Shown piece after piece: positions 1 through 64,000 of a stretch of 64,000 nucleotides of DNA (positions are counted from its first letter, which is position 1; every line of letters starts with the position of its first letter). The stretch spans positions 236-64,235 of the forward strand of contig PDRJ01000032.1 of the NCBI GenBank assembly GCA_002748065.1, given 5' to 3'. The notes beneath the pieces are model-generated. The model saw nothing but the letters and a program-made list of their open reading frames with translations. It had not been told where the DNA came from and ran no database searches. The position numbers were made by a program, and so were the translations under genes. This DNA comes from Bacteroidota bacterium. Lineage in GTDB: Bacteria; Bacteroidota; Bacteroidia; Bacteroidales; BM520.

Positions 1-499
1 CATCAAAAGCATTATCACCTGAACCTTGTTCTCCTATGAAAGATTCTAATGTGTGCCACTCTGTGCCATCATTATAAAGAACATAAAAATGAGTAGAAAA
101 GAAACCTGCTCCTCCGTTACTTACAAACCAATGATAGAATTTTAAACTAGTTGTACCATTAGAAGGAATATTAAACTCACTTGTTTGCAAATAATTAAAA
201 GGATTACCTTCCGATCCTGCAGTATAACCTAATGCAGCAGAAAAATCACCTTCATAAAGATAATCTCCTCCGTTTCCTCCAAAGCTTGCTTCACTACAAA
301 TAAACCAAGTATTGTCTCCGGCATTAAAATCAGTAGGAGTTTGGTCTGATCCCATTAAATCAGAAGCAGAAAAAGTTGACCAGCCATCTGGCCAAGTAGT
401 TCCTGCTGTCTCTTCAAAACCCTGTTCTAGTATTACTATTTGTGCATTTACAAAACCAAACATAATTAAAATCGCAAATAAAATAGAAAATTTTCTCAT
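1..499 (-). CDS. Secreted protein, N-terminal fragment (gene runs off the left window edge)
   Basis: Own reverse-complement translation: ATG at 499..497, then MRKFSILFAILIMFGFVNAQ (signal peptide) IVILEQGFEETAGTTWPDGWSTF..., open with no stop to nt 1. It is absent from the ORF track because it has no stop in the window. ORF 312..518(+) is its antisense shadow. Confidence 0.6.
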   Translation of the reverse strand, partial: MRKFSILFAILIMFGFVNAQIVILEQGFEETAGTTWPDGWSTFSASDLMGSDQTPTDFNAGDNTWFICSEASFGGNGGDYLYEGDFSAALGYTAGSEGNPFNYLQTSEFNIPSNGTTSLKFYHWFVSNGGAGFFSTHFYVLYNDGTEWHTLESFIGEQGSGDNAFD

Positions 500-670
500 A
501 ACTTTAACTTTCTTATAAATTAGACTTCAAGGATATTAATTTTTTTGTTACTAACAAATTAACTCATTTTCGGACACTAGCATCCGAAAGTTGAGATTTT
601 AAAAAGCCCTCAGAATCTCGTGTTTTTGAGTTCGACAAAAAACCTCTTAAATATGGGACTCTTCAGGTGA

Positions 671-1349
671 AACAAAAATAACAAAAAAACAGTTGTCAGA
701 CAAATTTTAGATTTAGTACCGCGTTGGTTATTTAATGCTTGTACCAATACCTACAAAAGTGATAAAGGTTGCAGTAAATATAAGACATACGACCAATTTG
801 TAGCCTTAACTTTCGGACAGCTAAAGGAGGCATTAAATTACATACAGTCTGGGACGACACATTGATGATTCCTGATGTTGTTAATATCAGCCAGGCCAAA
901 GTTCACGACTGTTATGGATTAGCACAGTTAATATTTCCCAAAGGCACTGTAATTGTAGAAGATAGAGGATATGTTGATTTTGAGTTAATGCTAAATAGTG
1001 TCTGTCTATAGAGTCAGCGTTTTGAGAAGAGGCTGTCTAGAAAGTTCGAATTCGAGGCTTGCGAAGGCTGAAATAGGTGAGTTTACCAGGGTAAATGACC
1101 ATTTGGAAGAGAAGCGTAACGAAGAAGTCGGACTTTATAGACGGACTCTATTTACTCTTGGAACTGGTAAAACGTACAATTGCTAAAGGGAATATAGCGT
1201 TTTCAAACTTATCAGAGAAAATAAGGTTTTGCCTGTATCACTACCTTACTTTGGGATACGTGTGTAATGAAGTTAAAGAGGGCGTTAGGAGAATAAAACT
1301 CAAAAAACAAAAAGAAATTGCTTTTGAGAAAGACTTATTTTCCGGTTAA
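671..1349 (+). pseudogene. IS4-family transposase remnant (DUF4372-like N-terminus), broken by a stop, deletions and a repeat-element insertion
   Basis: Frame 671..865 reads NKKTVVRQILDLVPRWLFNACTNTYKSDKGCSKYKTYDQFVALTFGQL... then TGA. Frame 868..994 reads IPDVVNISQAKVHDCYGLAQLIFPKGTVIVEDRGYVDFELMLN (DDE-type DRGY block) and is cut at 996 by the 155-bp element. A short tail continues 1151..1349. There is no ATG and the total is far too short for an intact transposase. Confidence 0.6.
996..1150 (+). mobile_element. MITE-like 155-bp TIR element, copy A (inserted in the IS4 remnant)
   Basis: TAGTGTCTGTCTATAGAGTC...GACTTTATAGACGGACTCTA. Near-identical in length and sequence to copies at 28801, 34651 and 24398(rc). 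Flanked by TA on both sides (aaaTA|G...C|TAttt). Confidence 0.85.
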
Positions 1350-1435
1350 GCCGTACTTTTAGAATGGTTTTATTGGGATACAGAGGTTTTCTTGAATTTT
1401 TCTAAAAACTTTCAGGTGCTAGTGATAAAAAATGA

Positions 1436-1443
1436 TAAATTTG
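1436..1443 (+). promoter_or_regulatory. Bacteroidota -7 promoter box TAAATTTG
   Basis: Matches TAnnTTTG, 14 nt upstream of ATG 1457. It sits in a 19-nt string (aaaaatgataaatttgaat) repeated at 2536..2554. Confidence 0.5.
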
Positions 1444-1456
1444 AATAAAGATAAAT

Positions 1457-2329
1457 ATGATGAATAACGTATTATTGGCGGGAGCAACAGGATATTTAGG
1501 AAGTTTTATAACTCAGGAATTAGTTGCAAGAGATTTTGTGACAAGGATAGTCGTGCGTAATAAAGAGAAGGTAAATATAAACGCTCCCAATTTAGAAGTG
1601 GTAGAAGCACAAGTAACAGATCCTGAATCACTTAAAGGGATATGTGAAGGCTTCAATATTGTGATAAGCACTGTTGGAATTACACGCCAAAAAGATGGAT
1701 TGACCTACATGGATGTTGATTATCAGGCAAATGTGAACTTAATAGATGAAGCCAGGAAAAGTGGTGTCACAAAGTTTATTTATATCTCTCTCCTTAACGG
1801 AGATAAATTAAGGTATATAAAAGGTGGAGAGGCAAAGGAGAAATTAGTTGATTACTTAAAAAATTCTGGTTTGGATTATTGCATTATAAGACCTAATGGC
1901 TTTTTCTCTGATATGGGCGATTTTCTTAAAATGGCAAAAGGTGGGAGGATATATCTTTTTGGCAAAGGAGAACTTAAAATGAATCCAATTCACGGAAAGG
2001 ATTTAGCAGAAGTGGTTGTTGATTCAATAAATCAAAATAAACAAGAAATAAATGTGGGCGGACCTGATATGTTATCTCAGAACGAGATTGCCGCATTGGC
2101 ATTAGAGGCATATAGAAAACCTGTTAAAATAGTTCATCTTCCCGATTGGATACGAAGATTTGTTATTTGGTTTTTTCGTTCTTTTACCAATCAAAAGATT
2201 TATGGACCTATTGAATTTTTTATGACGATAATGGTGATGGATATGCAAGCACCAAAATATGGGAAAGAGAAACTAGAAGATTTCTTTAATCAAGAAGTAA
2301 AAAAACTAGAAAGAACTCTGCATAATTGA
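1457..2329 (+). CDS. NAD(P)H-binding atypical SDR (NmrA-like) oxidoreductase
   Basis: 290-aa ORF with N-terminal Rossmann motif LLAGATGYLGSFI and an NmrA/atypical-SDR-like layout. Confidence 0.75.
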   Translation: MMNNVLLAGATGYLGSFITQELVARDFVTRIVVRNKEKVNINAPNLEVVEAQVTDPESLKGICEGFNIVISTVGITRQKDGLTYMDVDYQANVNLIDEARKSGVTKFIYISLLNGDKLRYIKGGEAKEKLVDYLKNSGLDYCIIRPNGFFSDMGDFLKMAKGGRIYLFGKGELKMNPIHGKDLAEVVVDSINQNKQEINVGGPDMLSQNEIAALALEAYRKPVKIVHLPDWIRRFVIWFFRSFTNQKIYGPIEFFMTIMVMDMQAPKYGKEKLEDFFNQEVKKLERTLHN

Positions 2330-2543
2330 GTAGATGGCTGACAGCCGGCTGACCCTCAATGTGCCTTTTCCTCCCAGGGCGGATAGAGTTATTGCCGTAT
2401 GTATGAGCCTTATATACGGGGCCGTTCGCTAAATCGAAGGGAATAGGGGGTATCTCTAATTCGGTGTAGTGAAGCTTTTTTGAAGAGCTGATTAAATTTT
2501 CAAGATAACCTAGGATTGATTGCGGAAATTAGGCGAAAAATGA

Positions 2544-2551
2544 TAAATTTG
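2544..2551 (+). promoter_or_regulatory. Bacteroidota -7 promoter box TAAATTTG
   Basis: TAnnTTTG match 71 nt upstream of ATG 2622, in the same 19-nt context as at 1427..1446. Confidence 0.45.
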
Positions 2552-2621
2552 AATGCCATATAAGTAACTGAAAATTAAGGACTGATTTTTATATTAGTCG
2601 GAATTTTATAAAGAAATACCT

Positions 2622-3308
2622 ATGAAAAGACTAATAATTTTGATTGCTTCAATATTTATTATATCGAATGCATATTCACAAGAAATGAAGTTTGAGAGAC
2701 CAAACTATAAGAAGATTAGAAGAGAAATAAAAAAGAGAAAATCGAACCTTTATTATAAAAAACTATTTGACCGATATATAAATGGGGATACAACATTCAA
2801 CTTAAATGAGAAAAGACATTTATATTACGGGTTTTCATTTCAAGAAGATTATTCTCCATATGGCATTTCAACATATAGTGATAGTTTGACTATATTTTAT
2901 GAGAAGGACACATTAACTGAGTCTGATTTCAATGAAATTATTAAGTTTTCAAAATTATTACTTGATGAAAACCCATTCGACTTAAGAGCATTGGACAATT
3001 TGAATTACGCTTATTATAGACTTGGAAACAAAGAGCTTGAAAATCTTTACAATTATAAATTATTGTTGATTCTTGATGCAATTATGAGTTCAGGTGATGG
3101 AATAAGTGAGAAAAGTGCATTTTATGTAATATATATATCGCATGAATATGATTTGTTAAATGCTCTAGGATTTGGTTTTGGGGGAGAGCAAAGTTTTACA
3201 ACAAACGGTTATGATTATTTAAAGCTACAGGACAATGAATTTGGAATTGAAGGATTCTATTTTGAAATAAGTAGAAGTTTAGAGCAGCTTAATCTCATGT
3301 TTAAATAA
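2622..3308 (+). CDS. Secreted hypothetical protein
   Basis: 228-aa ORF with signal peptide MKRLIILIASIFIISNAYSQ. It is Lys/Asn/Tyr-rich with AT-rich codon usage. No motif I can name with confidence. Confidence 0.6.
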   Translation: MKRLIILIASIFIISNAYSQEMKFERPNYKKIRREIKKRKSNLYYKKLFDRYINGDTTFNLNEKRHLYYGFSFQEDYSPYGISTYSDSLTIFYEKDTLTESDFNEIIKFSKLLLDENPFDLRALDNLNYAYYRLGNKELENLYNYKLLLILDAIMSSGDGISEKSAFYVIYISHEYDLLNALGFGFGGEQSFTTNGYDYLKLQDNEFGIEGFYFEISRSLEQLNLMFK

Positions 3309-3425
3309 AAAACGTCCTGTAATCGAGTAAGATGGCTGAGGACCGGCTCTTTTTTGGGGTTGGTTTTGAGCAGGATGAGGTTGCTAGAGGGAATTCTATT
3401 GCTGGAAAGGTTTTTATATAAAAAA

Positions 3426-3458
3426 GGCCCTACTCTTTGAAGAGTAGGGCCTTTTTTT
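3426..3458. terminator. Bidirectional rho-independent terminator
   Basis: GGCCCTACTC-tttgaa-GAGTAGGGCC, with an A-run before and a T7 run after. It lies between the convergent genes 2622..3308(+) and hydC(-). Confidence 0.8.
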
Positions 3459-3538
3459 ATCCTCAAAACAAGAGAAGAAGGCCTGTGAGAATAGAATTAC
3501 AGGCTCTTCCTGTGTGTTTAGAGGTGGCGGTCAATGAC

Positions 3539-4027
3539 CTATAAATCACGGTACTCTTTAATGATCTTCTTAACATCATCAGGAGCCACGCGGCCATAGG
3601 TTTTGTCTCCTACTTGTACTACAGGAGCGAGTCCACAGGCCCCCACACAGCGCAGGCATGAGAGTGAGAACTTTCCATCCTCGCTGGTCTTTCCCACTTC
3701 AAGGTTCAACTCTTTCTTGAATTCATTTAGAACCTTCTCTGCACCACGAACGTAACAAGCAGTTCCTGTACAGATGGAGATGGGGAACCTTCCCTTGGGG
3801 GTCATGGTGAAGAATGAGTAGAATGTGACGACACCATAGACCTTTGCAACGGAGATGTTGAGCTCTAGCGCAATCACCTCTTGTACTTCAGGGGGTAGAT
3901 AGCCAAAGACCTCTTGTGTTTTATGAAGGACATTGATAAGTTCTCCCGGGTCATTGTTGAAAGAGGTACAAATCTCTTCTATTTTAGCAATATCCGCTTT
4001 TTTTAATTTTACTTTTATGCTTGACAT
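3539..4027 (-). CDS. hydC: [FeFe]-hydrogenase NuoE-like [2Fe-2S] subunit (HydC/HndA type)
   Basis: 162 aa. Cys pattern CTGTAC...CLRCVGAC is typical of NuoE/HydC thioredoxin-like 2Fe-2S proteins. Last gene of the hydrogenase operon. Confidence 0.85.
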   Translation of the reverse strand: MSSIKVKLKKADIAKIEEICTSFNNDPGELINVLHKTQEVFGYLPPEVQEVIALELNISVAKVYGVVTFYSFFTMTPKGRFPISICTGTACYVRGAEKVLNEFKKELNLEVGKTSEDGKFSLSCLRCVGACGLAPVVQVGDKTYGRVAPDDVKKIIKEYRDL

Positions 4028-8221: not shown

Positions 8222-8306
8222 ATTAAGTAGTTGTAAATGAGTTGTATGTGTGAGTATCGGCGGGCTGAAATAGCCCTTTTGAGATTGTCTAAAAAGACCA
8301 GGCTCG

Positions 8307-8344
8307 TGTCTGTTCCTAAAGTCGGACTTTAACGACGGACGCTA
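8307..8344. repeat. Mini hairpin derivative of the MITE (two termini back to back)
   Basis: GTGTCTGTTCCTAAAGTC-GGACTTTAACGACGGACGCTA. Degenerate internal MITE sequence (ggctgaaatag...) lies just upstream at ~8262..8306. The terminal CTA at 8342..8344 is the TAG stop of CDS 8342..8887. Confidence 0.7.
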
Positions 8345-8887
8345 GGCTAATATCTGTAGGGCTGTCAGGTTATTTTTGATAAACTCTTTGAGAATGGGAC
8401 GAACGCCATTGCTATTTAGAGGGACCCCAAGAGCTTCTGTTAGTTCTTTGGAATCCAGTGTGAAAGATCCATTAGGGGTGGAGTGCGTATAGATAAGGTG
8501 AACCTCGGGGTGTCCGGTTAAAAAGAGCAATAGTGTTCCGATAATATCGCCCAGGGGTTGACGATCGATATGGTTAAGCCCGAAGGTTGCTGAGACTCTT
8601 GTGCCTTTGGAGAGGGTGCTGACAATGGAGAAGGTACCGCCGGTTAATTCTGCATGGTACTTTAGCAACGAGGTTCCCATGCCCGTCTTTTTTCCTTTCT
8701 TCGTGGTGAAGAAAGGGTCGGATATTCGGTTTAGGGTCTCCTGATCCATTCCCGTGCCATTATCCGTAATGGTGAGTGTCATGGTGTTGTGTTGTGGTTG
8801 CTCTTCAATGGCAATGACCACATGATCCGCTTCAGCGCGAATGGAGTTGTTGACAATATCCACAATATGTTCACAGATCTCTTTCAT
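8342..8887 (-). CDS. GHKL (HATPase_c) ATP-binding protein, stand-alone
   Basis: 181 aa with an N-box IVDIVNNSIRA, G1 DNGTGM and G2 GMGTS. No DHp/HisKA region is visible. Confidence 0.75.
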   Translation of the reverse strand: MKEICEHIVDIVNNSIRAEADHVVIAIEEQPQHNTMTLTITDNGTGMDQETLNRISDPFFTTKKGKKTGMGTSLLKYHAELTGGTFSIVSTLSKGTRVSATFGLNHIDRQPLGDIIGTLLLFLTGHPEVHLIYTHSTPNGSFTLDSKELTEALGVPLNSNGVRPILKEFIKNNLTALQILA

Positions 8888-13074: not shown

Positions 13075-13533
13075 TTAAAGAATCTGTATGCTCTCCTTTT
13101 TGGTGAATTTTTCACAATAGTGGCATTTCAGCGTAAGATCTTGATGGCTTACCACATAAAACTTCCGGGGAACGTTTTGGTGATTGGTTACGCATTTGGG
13201 GTTGATGCATTTGACGTAGCCTTCCACCACATCGGGGATTTCCACTTGCTGCTTGCTTGTGATTTCGAAGTTTCGAATCTCAATAAGGGAGGCAGTGGGC
13301 GCCACGAGGGCGATTTTGTTCACCTCTTCCTTTCGGAAGTAACGATTGCTAACCTTGATGATCCCCTTTTTCCCAAATTTCTTGCTATCCAGGTTGGTGC
13401 CGAAGGTGATGGGGTTCACACAGTCGTCAAGATCCAATATTTTGATTACCGTAAAGAGGGCATCTGCCGGAATATGGTCGATTACTGTACCATTCTCTAA
13501 GGCTGAGACTTTAAGTGTCTTTTTTGTTTCCAT
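13075..13533 (-). CDS. pyrI: Aspartate carbamoyltransferase regulatory subunit
   Basis: 152 aa. LKVSALENGTVIDHIP and a C-terminal Zn Cys pairs CINPKC...CHYCE. Directly downstream of pyrB. Confidence 0.9.
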   Translation of the reverse strand: METKKTLKVSALENGTVIDHIPADALFTVIKILDLDDCVNPITFGTNLDSKKFGKKGIIKVSNRYFRKEEVNKIALVAPTASLIEIRNFEITSKQQVEIPDVVEGYVKCINPKCVTNHQNVPRKFYVVSHQDLTLKCHYCEKFTKKESIQIL

Positions 13534-13550
13534 TTGTATATCGGTTATTT

Positions 13551-13590
13551 AGTATCTGTCCATAAAGTCGGACTTTATAGACAGACGCTA
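13551..13590. repeat. Mini hairpin derivative of the MITE in the pyrB-pyrI spacer
   Basis: AGTATCTGTCCATAAAGTC-GGACTTTATAGACAGACGCTA (about 14-bp stem). The terminal CTA at 13588..13590 is the pyrB TAG stop. TA on both flanks. Confidence 0.8.
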
Positions 13591-14526
13591 TTTAAGGTTA
13601 AGTGTTGATGCAAGGAGCGCTTCGCGAACATAGACGCCATTGAGCGCTTGTTGGAAGTAGTAGGCTTTGGGGTTGGTATCCACATCCTCGCTGATTTCGT
13701 TGACCCGGGGAAGGGGGTGCATCACTTTGAGGTTCTCCTTCGAGTTGGCCAGCATGGCATTCTTTAGAATGTAGCTGTTTTTAACCCGTTCGTACTCCAG
13801 TGGATCGGCAAAGCGTTCCCGTTGGATTCGTGTCATGTAGATAATGTCCACCTCAGGGATGATTTCATTGAGCTCCAGATGTTGGGTGTAGGTTAGGTTG
13901 GCATCCTTGATGTGTTGTTTGACGGCCCTGGGAAGTTTTAATTCTACCGGTGATACCAGTCTGTAAGTACAGTTAAATTGCGTCATGGCCTGTACCAGGG
14001 AGTGTACCGTACGTCCATACTTCAGATCCCCCACAAAGGCAATCTTCAAGTTCTCCAGGGTGCCCTGTGTTTTGAGGATGGAGTAGAGGTCTAACATGCA
14101 CTGTGTGGGGTGCTGGTTGGCGCCATCCCCGGCGTTAATGATGGGCACCTGGCTTATCTCGGAGGCAAAGCGGGCACTGCCATCCAAGGGGTGGCGCATC
14201 ACAATGAGGTCGGCGTAGAGGCTGATGTTCATGATGGTATCCCGAAGTGATTCGCCCTTTTGTACCGAGGAGCTGGAGGAATCAGTGAATCCAATGATTC
14301 GTCCTCCAAGGCGTTGGATTGCCGTTTCAAAACTGAGGCGTGTTCGGGTGGAGGGCTCAAAGAAGAGGCTTGCAATGATCTTGTTTTGTAGCAGCGTGGG
14401 TTCCGGATGACTTTCAAAATGAGCAGCTAACTTAAGGATGCGAAGGATATCCTCTTTGGAGTAATCGGTGATAGAGATGAGGCTTTTATTTTTCATGGGC
14501 ATTTTTTTTCTGAGATCCATATTCAT
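13588..14526 (-). CDS. pyrB: Aspartate carbamoyltransferase catalytic subunit
   Basis: 312 aa. FFEPSTRTR, HPTQ and HPLPR motifs. The start is uncertain (alternative Met residues at codons 3, 9 and 11). Confidence 0.9.
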   Translation of the reverse strand: MNMDLRKKMPMKNKSLISITDYSKEDILRILKLAAHFESHPEPTLLQNKIIASLFFEPSTRTRLSFETAIQRLGGRIIGFTDSSSSSVQKGESLRDTIMNISLYADLIVMRHPLDGSARFASEISQVPIINAGDGANQHPTQCMLDLYSILKTQGTLENLKIAFVGDLKYGRTVHSLVQAMTQFNCTYRLVSPVELKLPRAVKQHIKDANLTYTQHLELNEIIPEVDIIYMTRIQRERFADPLEYERVKNSYILKNAMLANSKENLKVMHPLPRVNEISEDVDTNPKAYYFQQALNGVYVREALLASTLNLK

Positions 14527-17989: not shown

Positions 17990-18089
17990 AATTTGTTGGG
18001 GTAAATGTAATGCGTTGAGCAAAGCCGAAATAACCCTTTGGAAGAGAGGCACCACAAAGAAGTCGGGCTTTATAGACGGACTCTCTCTA
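17990..18089 (+). repeat. Degenerate MITE remnant(s)
   Basis: ggggtaaatg... gcaaagccgaaata..cctttggaagagaggcaccacaaagaagtcgggctttatagacggactctc. Matches internal and right-end MITE sequence, with rearrangement or deletion. Confidence 0.5.
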
Positions 18090-24397: not shown

Positions 24398-24552
24398 CAG
24401 AGCCCGTCTATAAAGTCCGACTTCTTCGTTATGCTTGTCTTCCTAATGGTCATTTACCTTAGTAAACTCCCCTCTTTCAGTCTTCGCAAGCCTCGAACTC
24501 GAACTTTCTATACAGCCTCTTCTCAACCCCTTGATTTTATGGACAGACACTA
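24398..24552 (-). mobile_element. MITE-like 155-bp element, copy E (reverse orientation)
   Basis: cagagcccgtctataaagtccgacttcttcg...ttttatggacagacacTA. Full length, between convergent genes. Confidence 0.85.
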
Positions 24553-28683: not shown

Positions 28684-28798
28684 TGTATAGAATGTTCGAA
28701 TCGAGGCTTGCGAAGGCTGAGAAATGGGAGTTTACTGAGGTAAATGACCATTTTGAAGACAAGCGTAACGAAGAAGTCGGACTCTATAGCGGACGTTA
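28684..28798 (+). mobile_element. MITE-like element, copy F (5'-truncated), in tandem with copy G
   Basis: Starts mid-element (tgtatagaatgttcgaatcgaggcttgcgaagg...) and ends ...gaagtcggactctatagcggacgtta, 2 nt before copy G. Confidence 0.8.
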
Positions 28799-28800
28799 CA

Positions 28801-28955
28801 TAGTGTCTGTCCATAAAGTCAGCGTTTTGAGAAGAGGCTGTATAGAAAGTTCGAATTCGAGGCTTGCGAAGGCTGAGAAATGGGAGTTTACTGAGGTAAA
28901 TGACCATTTTGAAGACAAGCGTAACGAAGAAGTCGGACTTTATATACAGCCTCTA
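28801..28955 (+). mobile_element. MITE-like 155-bp element, copy G
   Basis: TAGTGTCTGTCCATAAAGTC...GACTTTATATACAGCCTCTA, TA-flanked. Confidence 0.85.
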
Positions 28956-34650: not shown

Positions 34651-34805
34651 TAGTGTCTGTCCATAGAGTCAGCGTTTTGAGCAGCGGCTGTATAGAAAGT
34701 TCGAATTTGAGGCTTGCGAAGGCTGAAATAGGTGAGTTTACTGGGGTAAATGACCATTGGGAAGAGAAGCGTAACGAAGAAGTCGGACTTTATAGACAGA
34801 CTCTA
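34651..34805 (+). mobile_element. MITE-like 155-bp element, copy H
   Basis: TAGTGTCTGTCCATAGAGTC...GACTTTATAGACAGACTCTA, with flanks tataTA|...|TAtata. It ends 16 nt before ATG 34822. Confidence 0.85.
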
Positions 34806-39622: not shown

Positions 39623-39986
39623 AGCATTATTTATAACTGACCTGTCTTAACAACAGGGAAGAGGCTTTCGTTTCCCCTTTTTGGGGCTATTTTTAGCTCC
39701 TTATTTTTTTTGAGAAAAATGTTGTTTTGTTGTATGTAAATATATAGTAACTAGATGTTTATCTGTTCTTTTGTTGGGGCTTTGTTCTCTTATGGAGAGC
39801 ATCAATAATAAAAATAAGTTAATTTTTTATCTCGTCTGTTTTTATGATTGTTGATCCTTCTCTATCACATGTTTTTTTCGGGAGAGAGAAGGTCGCGGGA
39901 AGGAGGTGCCTTGCATGAGATGTCGTTGAAATTTTCCCCCAAGAGGATTCATAAGAGGCTCGTGCCGGAACAAAGGAATGATTTGC

Positions 39987-39994
39987 TACCTTTG
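39987..39994 (+). promoter_or_regulatory. -7 box TACCTTTG
   Basis: Only 5 nt upstream of ATG 39999, so the mRNA would be leaderless or nearly so. It lies inside the longer track ORF. Confidence 0.35.
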
Positions 39995-39998
39995 CCCA

Positions 39999-40820
39999 AT
40001 GAAGGATAAGGTTGTGATTATTACCGGAGCCTCTTCCGGTATAGGACGGGCGTTGGCAGTGCAATTTGTGAAGCAGGGGTCAATGGTGGTTCTTGCGGCA
40101 CGCAGTAAGGAGAAATTGTTGGAGGTGGAAGCCTCCTTGCAGGGTTATCCGGGGAAGGTATTGGTGGTTCCTACAGATGTGAGTGTAGAAAAAGAGTGCC
40201 AGAGACTTGTGGAGAAAACGGTAGCGGTGTTTGGTCGCATTGATATTCTTATTAATAATGCCGGTATATCCATGCGTGCCCTCTTTTGTGATCTGAAGCT
40301 GGAGGTGCTGGAGCGTTTGATGGCTGTCAATTTCTGGGGTACCGTTTACTGTTCCAAGTATGCTGAGCCTTACTTGGTGAAACAGAGGGGATCGTTGGTG
40401 GGGGTGATTTCCATTGCCGGATACCAAGGCCTTCCTGCACGGACCGGTTATTCCGCTTCCAAGTACGCCATTCGTGGTTTCCTGGATACCGTGCGGATAG
40501 AGAATCTGAAAACGGGAATGCATGTGATGATTGCTGCACCGGGGTTTACACAATCCAATATCCGTTTTTCTGCACTTACCGCTGATGCTACGCCTCAGGG
40601 AGCAACACCGCGTAAGGAAAAAAGCATGATGTCGCCGGAATATTGTGCGTATCGGATCTATTGGGCGATTCGTCGCCGAAAGCGCTCGTTGATCCTCACA
40701 ACACAAGGGAAGCTGACCGTTCTTCTGAATAAGCTCTTTCCCCGGTTCGTAGATTATGCCTCTTATCGGCTGATGGAGAAGGAACCCAACTCCCCATTAC
40801 AACGTTATCGGCATAAGTAG
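39999..40820 (+). CDS. Classical SDR-family oxidoreductase
   Basis: Trimmed to MKDKVVIITGASSGIGRALA. NNAG and YSASK motifs. The TAG stop at 40818..40820 is the first three nt of MITE copy I. Confidence 0.85.
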   Translation: MKDKVVIITGASSGIGRALAVQFVKQGSMVVLAARSKEKLLEVEASLQGYPGKVLVVPTDVSVEKECQRLVEKTVAVFGRIDILINNAGISMRALFCDLKLEVLERLMAVNFWGTVYCSKYAEPYLVKQRGSLVGVISIAGYQGLPARTGYSASKYAIRGFLDTVRIENLKTGMHVMIAAPGFTQSNIRFSALTADATPQGATPRKEKSMMSPEYCAYRIYWAIRRRKRSLILTTQGKLTVLLNKLFPRFVDYASYRLMEKEPNSPLQRYRHK

Positions 40821-40950
40821 CCTCTGTCTACCCATTCCGACTTCTTTGTGATGCGTGTCTTCCAAATGGTTATTTACCCCAGTAAATGCTCCTATTTCGA
40901 ACTTTCTAGACAGCCTCTTCTCAAAACGCTGACTTTATGAACAAACACTA
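40818..40950 (-). mobile_element. MITE-like element, copy I (reverse orientation, internal ~22-nt deletion)
   Basis: TAGCCTCTGTCTACCCATTCCGACTTC...gactttatgaacaaacacTA. Lacks the gaggcttgcgaaggctg segment. Confidence 0.8.
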
Positions 40951-40967
40951 AGTAATGTTAGTGCCTT

Positions 40968-63958: not shown

Positions 63959-64000
63959 TAGAGGCTGTATAGAAAGTCCGACTTCTTCGTTATGCTTGTC
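63959..64000 (-). mobile_element. MITE-like element, copy J (reverse orientation, cut by window end)
   Basis: TAGAGGCTGTATAGAAAGTCCGACTTCTTCGTTATGCTTGTC matches the reverse complement of the right end of copies G and E. Confidence 0.8.

Follow-up and report, generated by a model that had tools for sequence, protein, structure and literature searches.

The stop codons of three protein-coding genes in the 64 kb stretch of DNA analysed here (the window) are formed in part by the ends of a small repeat. We identify the repeat as a non-autonomous DNA transposon (MITE), whose copies make up a hitherto undescribed Bacteroidales family. We consider it probable, at roughly 0.75, that the arrangement comes from a MITE with the target YTAWWTAR and a terminal G, together with purifying selection, and that no special stop-seeking is involved.

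The three genes encode a short-chain dehydrogenase (SDR; Pfam adh_short; 39978..40820, plus strand), the catalytic chain of aspartate carbamoyltransferase (pyrB; OTCace_N/OTCace; 13588..14526, minus strand) and a GHKL (HATPase_c) ATPase of 181 aa (8342..8887, minus strand). In each of them the stop TAG is composed of a flanking TA and the first G of a repeat copy: copy H (40820-40948) for the SDR gene, with the stop at 40818-40820; copy C (13552-13588) for pyrB, where the stop is the reverse complement of 13588-13590; and copy B (8306-8342) for the ATPase gene, where it is the reverse complement of 8342-8344. A sequence-only reading of this DNA had placed the three stops at element termini and proposed that the element supplies their third base, and both statements are correct at all three coordinates. 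It had also remarked that the three genes read into the same end type (..GTCTATAAAGTCCGAC..). This is true inside the window, but among complete copies elsewhere 5 meet the stop with the left end and 6 with the right, without orientation bias in the 50 complete copies, and the same-end rule is therefore an accident of the window. Taken alone, the window places 3 of ~10 copies at a stop against a motif-based expectation of 8.5% per insertion (P = 0.047), and TAG is the stop of 17/46 of its genes; the coincidence within the window is thus marginally above chance, while the family-wide excess described below is robust.

About ten copies of the repeat lie within the window, and perfect 6-bp direct repeats flank copies C (TAAATA), G (TATATA) and H (TAAGTA). 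Copy H is a divergent short variant of 129 bp on the plus strand, whose first base completes the SDR stop; the last TA of its left duplication (40814..40819) provides bases 1-2 of that stop, and the right duplication (40949..40954) is a perfect match to the left one. Copy C is a mini copy of 37 bp on the minus strand, situated in the spacer between pyrB and the next gene, pyrI (13075..13533), and the pyrB stop owes its third base to the G of this copy (the complement of 13588). The gene-proximal duplication (13589..13594) reads TAAATA on the gene strand, with its TA serving as bases 1-2 of the stop, and the distal one (13546..13551) matches it perfectly. The other mini copy, B (37 bp, minus strand), is degenerate and completes the ATPase stop with the complement of 8342; its far flank is GA instead of TA, and comparison with the relative L241 yields a clean insertion under neither the 2-bp nor the 6-bp model. 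Both mini copies consist of the two terminal inverted repeats and nothing else. Four copies are full-length, of 151 bp each: A (998..1148, minus strand), away from any stop codon; E (24400..24550, plus strand), in a spacer between convergent genes, whose stops lie 18 and 17 nt away; F (28803..28953, minus strand), 73 nt downstream of secDF; and G (34653..34803, minus strand), with its perfect TATATA/TATATA duplication. Copy D is partial, with the left end only (18028..18087, minus strand), and copy I (63961..64000, plus strand; left flank TAACTA) crosses the window end. A shortened copy (28701..28790, minus strand) abuts F, their contact (28701-28802) indicating a nested or tandem insertion, and the flanks of F are mismatched (TAAATA versus TATGTA). 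The flanks of copy A (992-997 and 1149-1154), TAAATA and TATTTA, form a reverse-complementary pair instead of a direct repeat and may be the trace of an inversion or a recombination between copies. Positions 1-4000 of the window have 35% G+C, compared with 43-54% in the remaining window, and may be foreign DNA.

The element is 37 to ~165 bp long overall; its window copies have 37, 129 or 151 bp, and lengths of 141-221 bp were seen in other DNA. It has no coding capacity and carries stops in two of the three frames at most 14 nt from each end. Its terminal inverted repeats are 18-20 bp long, and in at least 80 complete copies both ends read TA followed by G(A/T/C)GTCYGTCYATAAAGTC; TA immediately followed by G is found at 118/133 unique left junctions. 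The flanks of complete copies follow the pattern TAnnTA-G...C-TAnnTA. The middle nn is the same on both sides in 63/80 complete copies, compared with a mean of 22.4 and a maximum of 34 in shuffled pairings, and the whole flanking 6-mer is identical in 47/80 and matches at 5/6 positions in 22 more. The commonest duplication cores are TAATTA (33), TAAATA (14) and TATTTA (6). The base before TAnnTA is Y in 76% of cases and the base after it is R in 83%, giving the target consensus YTAWWTAR. The idea that TA itself is the true target-site duplication is therefore replaced by a 6-bp flank, TAnnTA with matching nn. Asymmetric cores appear as direct repeats (TAAATA/TAAATA, TAACTA/TAACTA, TACATA/TACATA and TAGATA/TAGATA), hence the duplication is a true one and the target is not a palindrome around a central TA; a palindromic 10-bp target with duplication of its central TA was rejected for the same reason, since these cores would have to repeat in inverted form. 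An 8-bp duplication (C-TAnnTA-G) was rejected as well, the flanking positions being C/G in only 40-48% of cases and the bases at the element ends 93-97% conserved. Judged from the sequences, the duplication would be either the 6-bp TAnnTA or a 2-bp nn accompanied by TAs borne by the element, with the same empty site either way.

The family is widespread among uncultured Bacteroidales of the sea and of sediments: it was found in several Bacteroidales and Draconibacterium MAGs and on more than 100 marine and sediment metagenome contigs, which together gave more than 130 distinct junctions. A pattern scan of genome contigs with 14 specified bases returned real copies at 13/116 loci, the others being mostly chance matches. 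The structural features of a MITE are present: the repeats are small and non-coding, have terminal inverted repeats and a direct duplication, and occur as dispersed copies with empty sites. The duplication of exactly TA that defines IS630/Tc1-mariner-derived MITEs is not seen, since the duplicated part also takes in two variable bases and another TA. As no autonomous partner or transposase was found, we infer transposition from the anatomy and the empty sites. Among the metagenome and MAG loci, none of the inverted-repeat pairs lying 0.45-4 kb apart encloses a transposase, and the ORFs beside unpaired element ends are ordinary genes, with no transposase bearing matching inverted repeats. A BLAST search of the element against plasmid and phage records gave no match, no Rfam family matches in the window, and we found no description of the inverted-repeat sequence in the literature. 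At one locus, L045, an IS110-family transposase gene (~475-1400; Pfam Transposase_20 and DEDD_Tnp_IS110) was found ~80 nt away from a complete copy (256-396) that has a TATATA/TATATA duplication; the gene stands beside this copy and not inside one. On a Bacteroidales MAG chromosome (OY781436.1; L087:54-3190) the inverted-repeat head CAGAGTCTGTCTATAAAGTC starts a ~185-bp unit that is tandemly repeated at least 6 times and ends in a mini-type palindrome.

Since the direct repeat is TAnnTA, the empty sites are reconstructed as CTT AAA TAA CCG.. for pyrB and CAT AAG TAA TGT.. for the SDR gene. The proposal that removing the element leaves TAA in both genes thus stands as far as the stop is concerned, but the bases around it differ under the TAnnTA model. 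We compared these sites with element-free relatives. All 14 pyrB orthologues (76-92% identity) end at the same residue as the ..LNLK of the window protein. The pyrB relatives at 92% and 87% identity read CTT AAA TAA with the pyrI ATG 9 nt on and no element; the element-free TAA was seen in L118, L119 and L120, and the TAA C of the reconstructed window site agrees with the closest relative. With copy C in place, the pyrB-pyrI gap is 54 nt instead of 9. For the GHKL ATPase, an 86% identical relative (GCA_002747205.1; L241) has GCG TAA at the same codon without an element. The SDR relatives are 73-76% identical and their C-termini differ by one residue: one of the same length (75%; L122) ends in GGT TAA, and another (76%; L121) stops one codon earlier with TAG. 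The expectation that element-free orthologues carry TAA at exactly these positions is accordingly borne out for pyrB and the ATPase gene and is plausible for the SDR gene. In the latter relative, AAG TAG is followed by CGACTGTACA (L121:2017-2035), weakly like the element head (TAG CGTCTGTCTA), which may be a vestige or chance. The identical pyrB occurs on a single public contig, which ends 23 nt past the stop, inside the repeat (L001:3939-3962), and an exact-protein look-up for the SDR in public contigs gave no match.

To relate insertions to gene ends, we defined d as the distance from the stop of the upstream frame (at least 100 codons) to the TA adjoining the element, with open frames of at least 100 codons serving as crude gene models. 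The survey covered ~130 independent junctions at loci L123-L240, from metagenomes and MAGs. Among 131 evaluable left ends, d = 0 occurred 17 times, d = 4 eight times and d = -13 five times, with every other positive distance represented 1-3 times; the 54 evaluable right ends included six with d = 0 and three with d = 4, the others being scattered. Insertions with d = 4 have the entire stop codon within the duplication, at its first TA. At d = -13 (5/131 left ends) the frame crosses TAnnTA and stops at the internal TAA of the inverted repeat (GTCTA-TAA-AG), and there element sequence may have taken the place of the final residues of the protein; weak versions of this configuration are present at the window copies at 998 and 24400. 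A stop codon is split by 11/50 (22%) complete evaluable insertions, and 5 more have d = 4. The genes with d = 0 are all different, and full-length Pfam domains were found in 10/10 tested (POR, pyridine-nucleotide disulphide oxidoreductase, polyprenyl synthase, FtsA, CrcB, patatin, Crp, ABC-2, DUF2851 and glutaredoxin), a thioredoxin-reductase-like protein being among those with full-length domains. The reconstructed ancestral stops at d = 0 are 7 TAG and 4 TAA. Stop usage in the surveyed loci is 58% TAA versus 27% TAG, and a TAG majority in such TAA-rich loci is a sign that the target prefers a G behind TAnnTA. Counted by eye, copies beginning GCG/GCC (TAG-C) make up ~5/19 of the stop-codon copies versus ~8/115 of the others, which may reflect subfamily structure or post-stop context.

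These counts were compared with null sites drawn from the same 850 kb, which were unoccupied and at which an insertion would leave every open frame of 100 codons or more unbroken; the PWM had a training set of only 34 non-stop insertion sites. Over free permissible TAnnTA sites, d = 0 was expected in 4.4-6.0% of insertions and observed in 22% (11/50; P ~2e-5 under a 6-mer-only PWM null). For the same observation, 8-12-mer PWMs of the non-stop insertions gave an expectation of 8-9% (P = 0.002-0.004) and an over-fitted 18-mer PWM one of 12-14% (P = 0.04-0.1), under which the excess at stops is weak. Counted per end, with both ends pooled, 23/185 have d = 0 versus 4.3% expected (P = 6e-6). For sites at most 100 nt downstream of a stop, d = 0 was expected in 24% and observed in 37% (17/46; P = 0.03), d = 4 was expected in 6% and observed in 17% (8/46; P = 0.006), and the two combined were expected in 30% and observed in 54% (25/46; P = 5e-4). 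Once the comparison is limited in this way to at most 100 nt downstream of genes, the spike is mostly predicted by the target motif, and its remainder is a bias toward the 3′ flanks of genes and toward the stop codon as such. The simplest reading of the residual excess is purifying selection against insertions that hit promoters, ribosome-binding sites and terminators. Of the suggestion that insertion at stops is tolerated or preferred, the over-representation stood, in ~130 junctions, but the preference is mostly explained by the TAR contained in YTAWWTAR.

The preferred reading, of a MITE with this target and terminal base under purifying selection, can be laid out as follows. The element integrates at the short palindromic YTAWWTAR and duplicates the central TAnnTA. 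Both target halves are TAR triplets, which makes TAA and TAG stops natural matches. If the break is made behind the TA of a stop, the element's G comes directly after the left duplicate, which gives TAG at the same codon with the protein unchanged; the stop is rebuilt as TAG because the element begins with G. In the second group of insertions (distance 4) the whole stop would be kept inside the duplication. Stops would be, in gene-dense genomes, among the few motif sites at which both coding sequence and promoters are spared, and after purifying selection about 1 in 5 insertions would remain exactly at a stop. Transposition would be of a cut-and-paste or copy-in type, carried out by a transposase. 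A mechanism that seeks stop codons would not be required; the TAR-containing target motif, the terminal G and purifying selection would thus mainly account for the pattern.

Other explanations were weighed against this one. That three repeat ends coincide with three stops in the window by chance alone we regard as highly improbable: the P value for at least 3/10 within the window is marginal and TAG is common there, but at least 20 more genes, unrelated and on independent contigs, show this configuration too, and the pooled P of 6e-6 refutes chance family-wide. It is also very unlikely that the element is an IS630/Tc1-mariner-type MITE with a plain TA duplication, which actively prefers the TA of stops and always turns the same end toward the gene. 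TA does stand at both ends of most copies, the TA+G stops are real, the same end faces all three window genes, and some excess survives correction for the motif. Yet nn is duplicated as a direct and not an inverted repeat (63/80 versus 22 expected), the 50 complete copies have no orientation bias at stops, and the motif alone accounts for the greater part of the spike (24% predicted versus 37% observed).

Two further explanations were considered. In the first, which we consider improbable, copies at stop codons were exapted and kept by positive selection as transcribed 3′ hairpins, acting as mRNA stabilisers, terminators, processing sites or pyrB-pyrI translation uncouplers. Copy C is predicted to fold into a hairpin with a 15-bp stem right after the pyrB stop (-20.8 kcal/mol, z = -7.2) and to this extent an RNA hairpin role for this mini copy is possible; it also lengthens the pyrB-pyrI gap from 9 nt to 54 nt, and the excess at d = 0 and d = 4 persists past motif correction (P = 5e-4). 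However, full-length copies fold like their shuffles (z = -0.08 and +0.07), and we rejected a structured-RNA function of the long copies on these z-scores near zero. The hairpin of copy B is degenerate (z = -0.64), there is no Rfam match, and both orientations are equally frequent at stops, which is unexpected for a strand-specific RNA function. In the second, the terminal G and the TAR target are co-adapted in a 'safe-harbour' strategy, the element or its transposase having evolved to land on stops and regenerate them, with gene ends as the principal niche and the residual excess (54% versus 30%) as a true insertion preference. We find this unlikely.

Several known repeat families resemble this one in part. 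REP/BIME elements are palindromes mobilised by RAYT, with an associated RAYT gene and no target duplication. The 37-bp mini copies are like them in being imperfect palindromes just downstream of genes; they differ in being collapsed forms of the 151-bp element, and copy C keeps its TAAATA/TAAATA duplication. In a partial check of the window no RAYT gene was seen. In Streptococcus pneumoniae, BOX repeats encode the stop codon of 36 annotated genes with no evident protein truncation (Croucher et al. 2011, PMC3049150). They too are small interspersed repeats at gene 3′ ends that supply stops, but they are modular (boxA/B/C), belong to Firmicutes and are unrelated in sequence to the Bacteroidales element, and that paper reports no defined TAnnTA duplication, target consensus or terminal G rule. 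The ends of QMITE1 and QMITE2 of Coxiella burnetii share 1-3 bp with the 3′ ends of functional genes (ubiB by 2 bp, CBU_2020 by 3 bp and kdgK by 1 bp; PMC5896051). An IS110/IS1111-family element lies beside the MITE there (IS1111 by QMITE2), recalling locus L045; QMITEs differ in coming from Gammaproteobacteria and in their unrelated sequence, and their overlaps were listed without a target motif or a null. The Correia/NEMIS repeats of Neisseria and other TA-duplicating (IS630/Tc1-mariner-like) MITEs share with our family a length of ~100-155 bp, inverted repeats, TA at both junctions, a mostly intergenic location and stop codons in several frames (Delihas 2008, PMC2229807). Here, in contrast to Correia/NEMIS and IS630-like MITEs, TAnnTA takes the place of the 2-bp TA, and the inverted repeats bear no relation to theirs. 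In a 2024 review of MITEs in prokaryotes, stop codons are not discussed.

The family described here is no new kind of biological system but tidy, ordinary transposon biology, although it is a new family with an unusual TAnnTA duplication. Its analysis against a quantified null shows how the target motif and the first base of the element together make stops silent landing sites, and it brings the scattered reports of BOX and QMITE overlaps with stops under one simple rule. For annotation, genes of Bacteroidales MAGs that end at the repeat are intact, and short-read contigs often break exactly at such stops, as the contig with the identical pyrB exemplifies. By turning TAA into TAG at fixed positions, these elements contribute to stop-codon usage.
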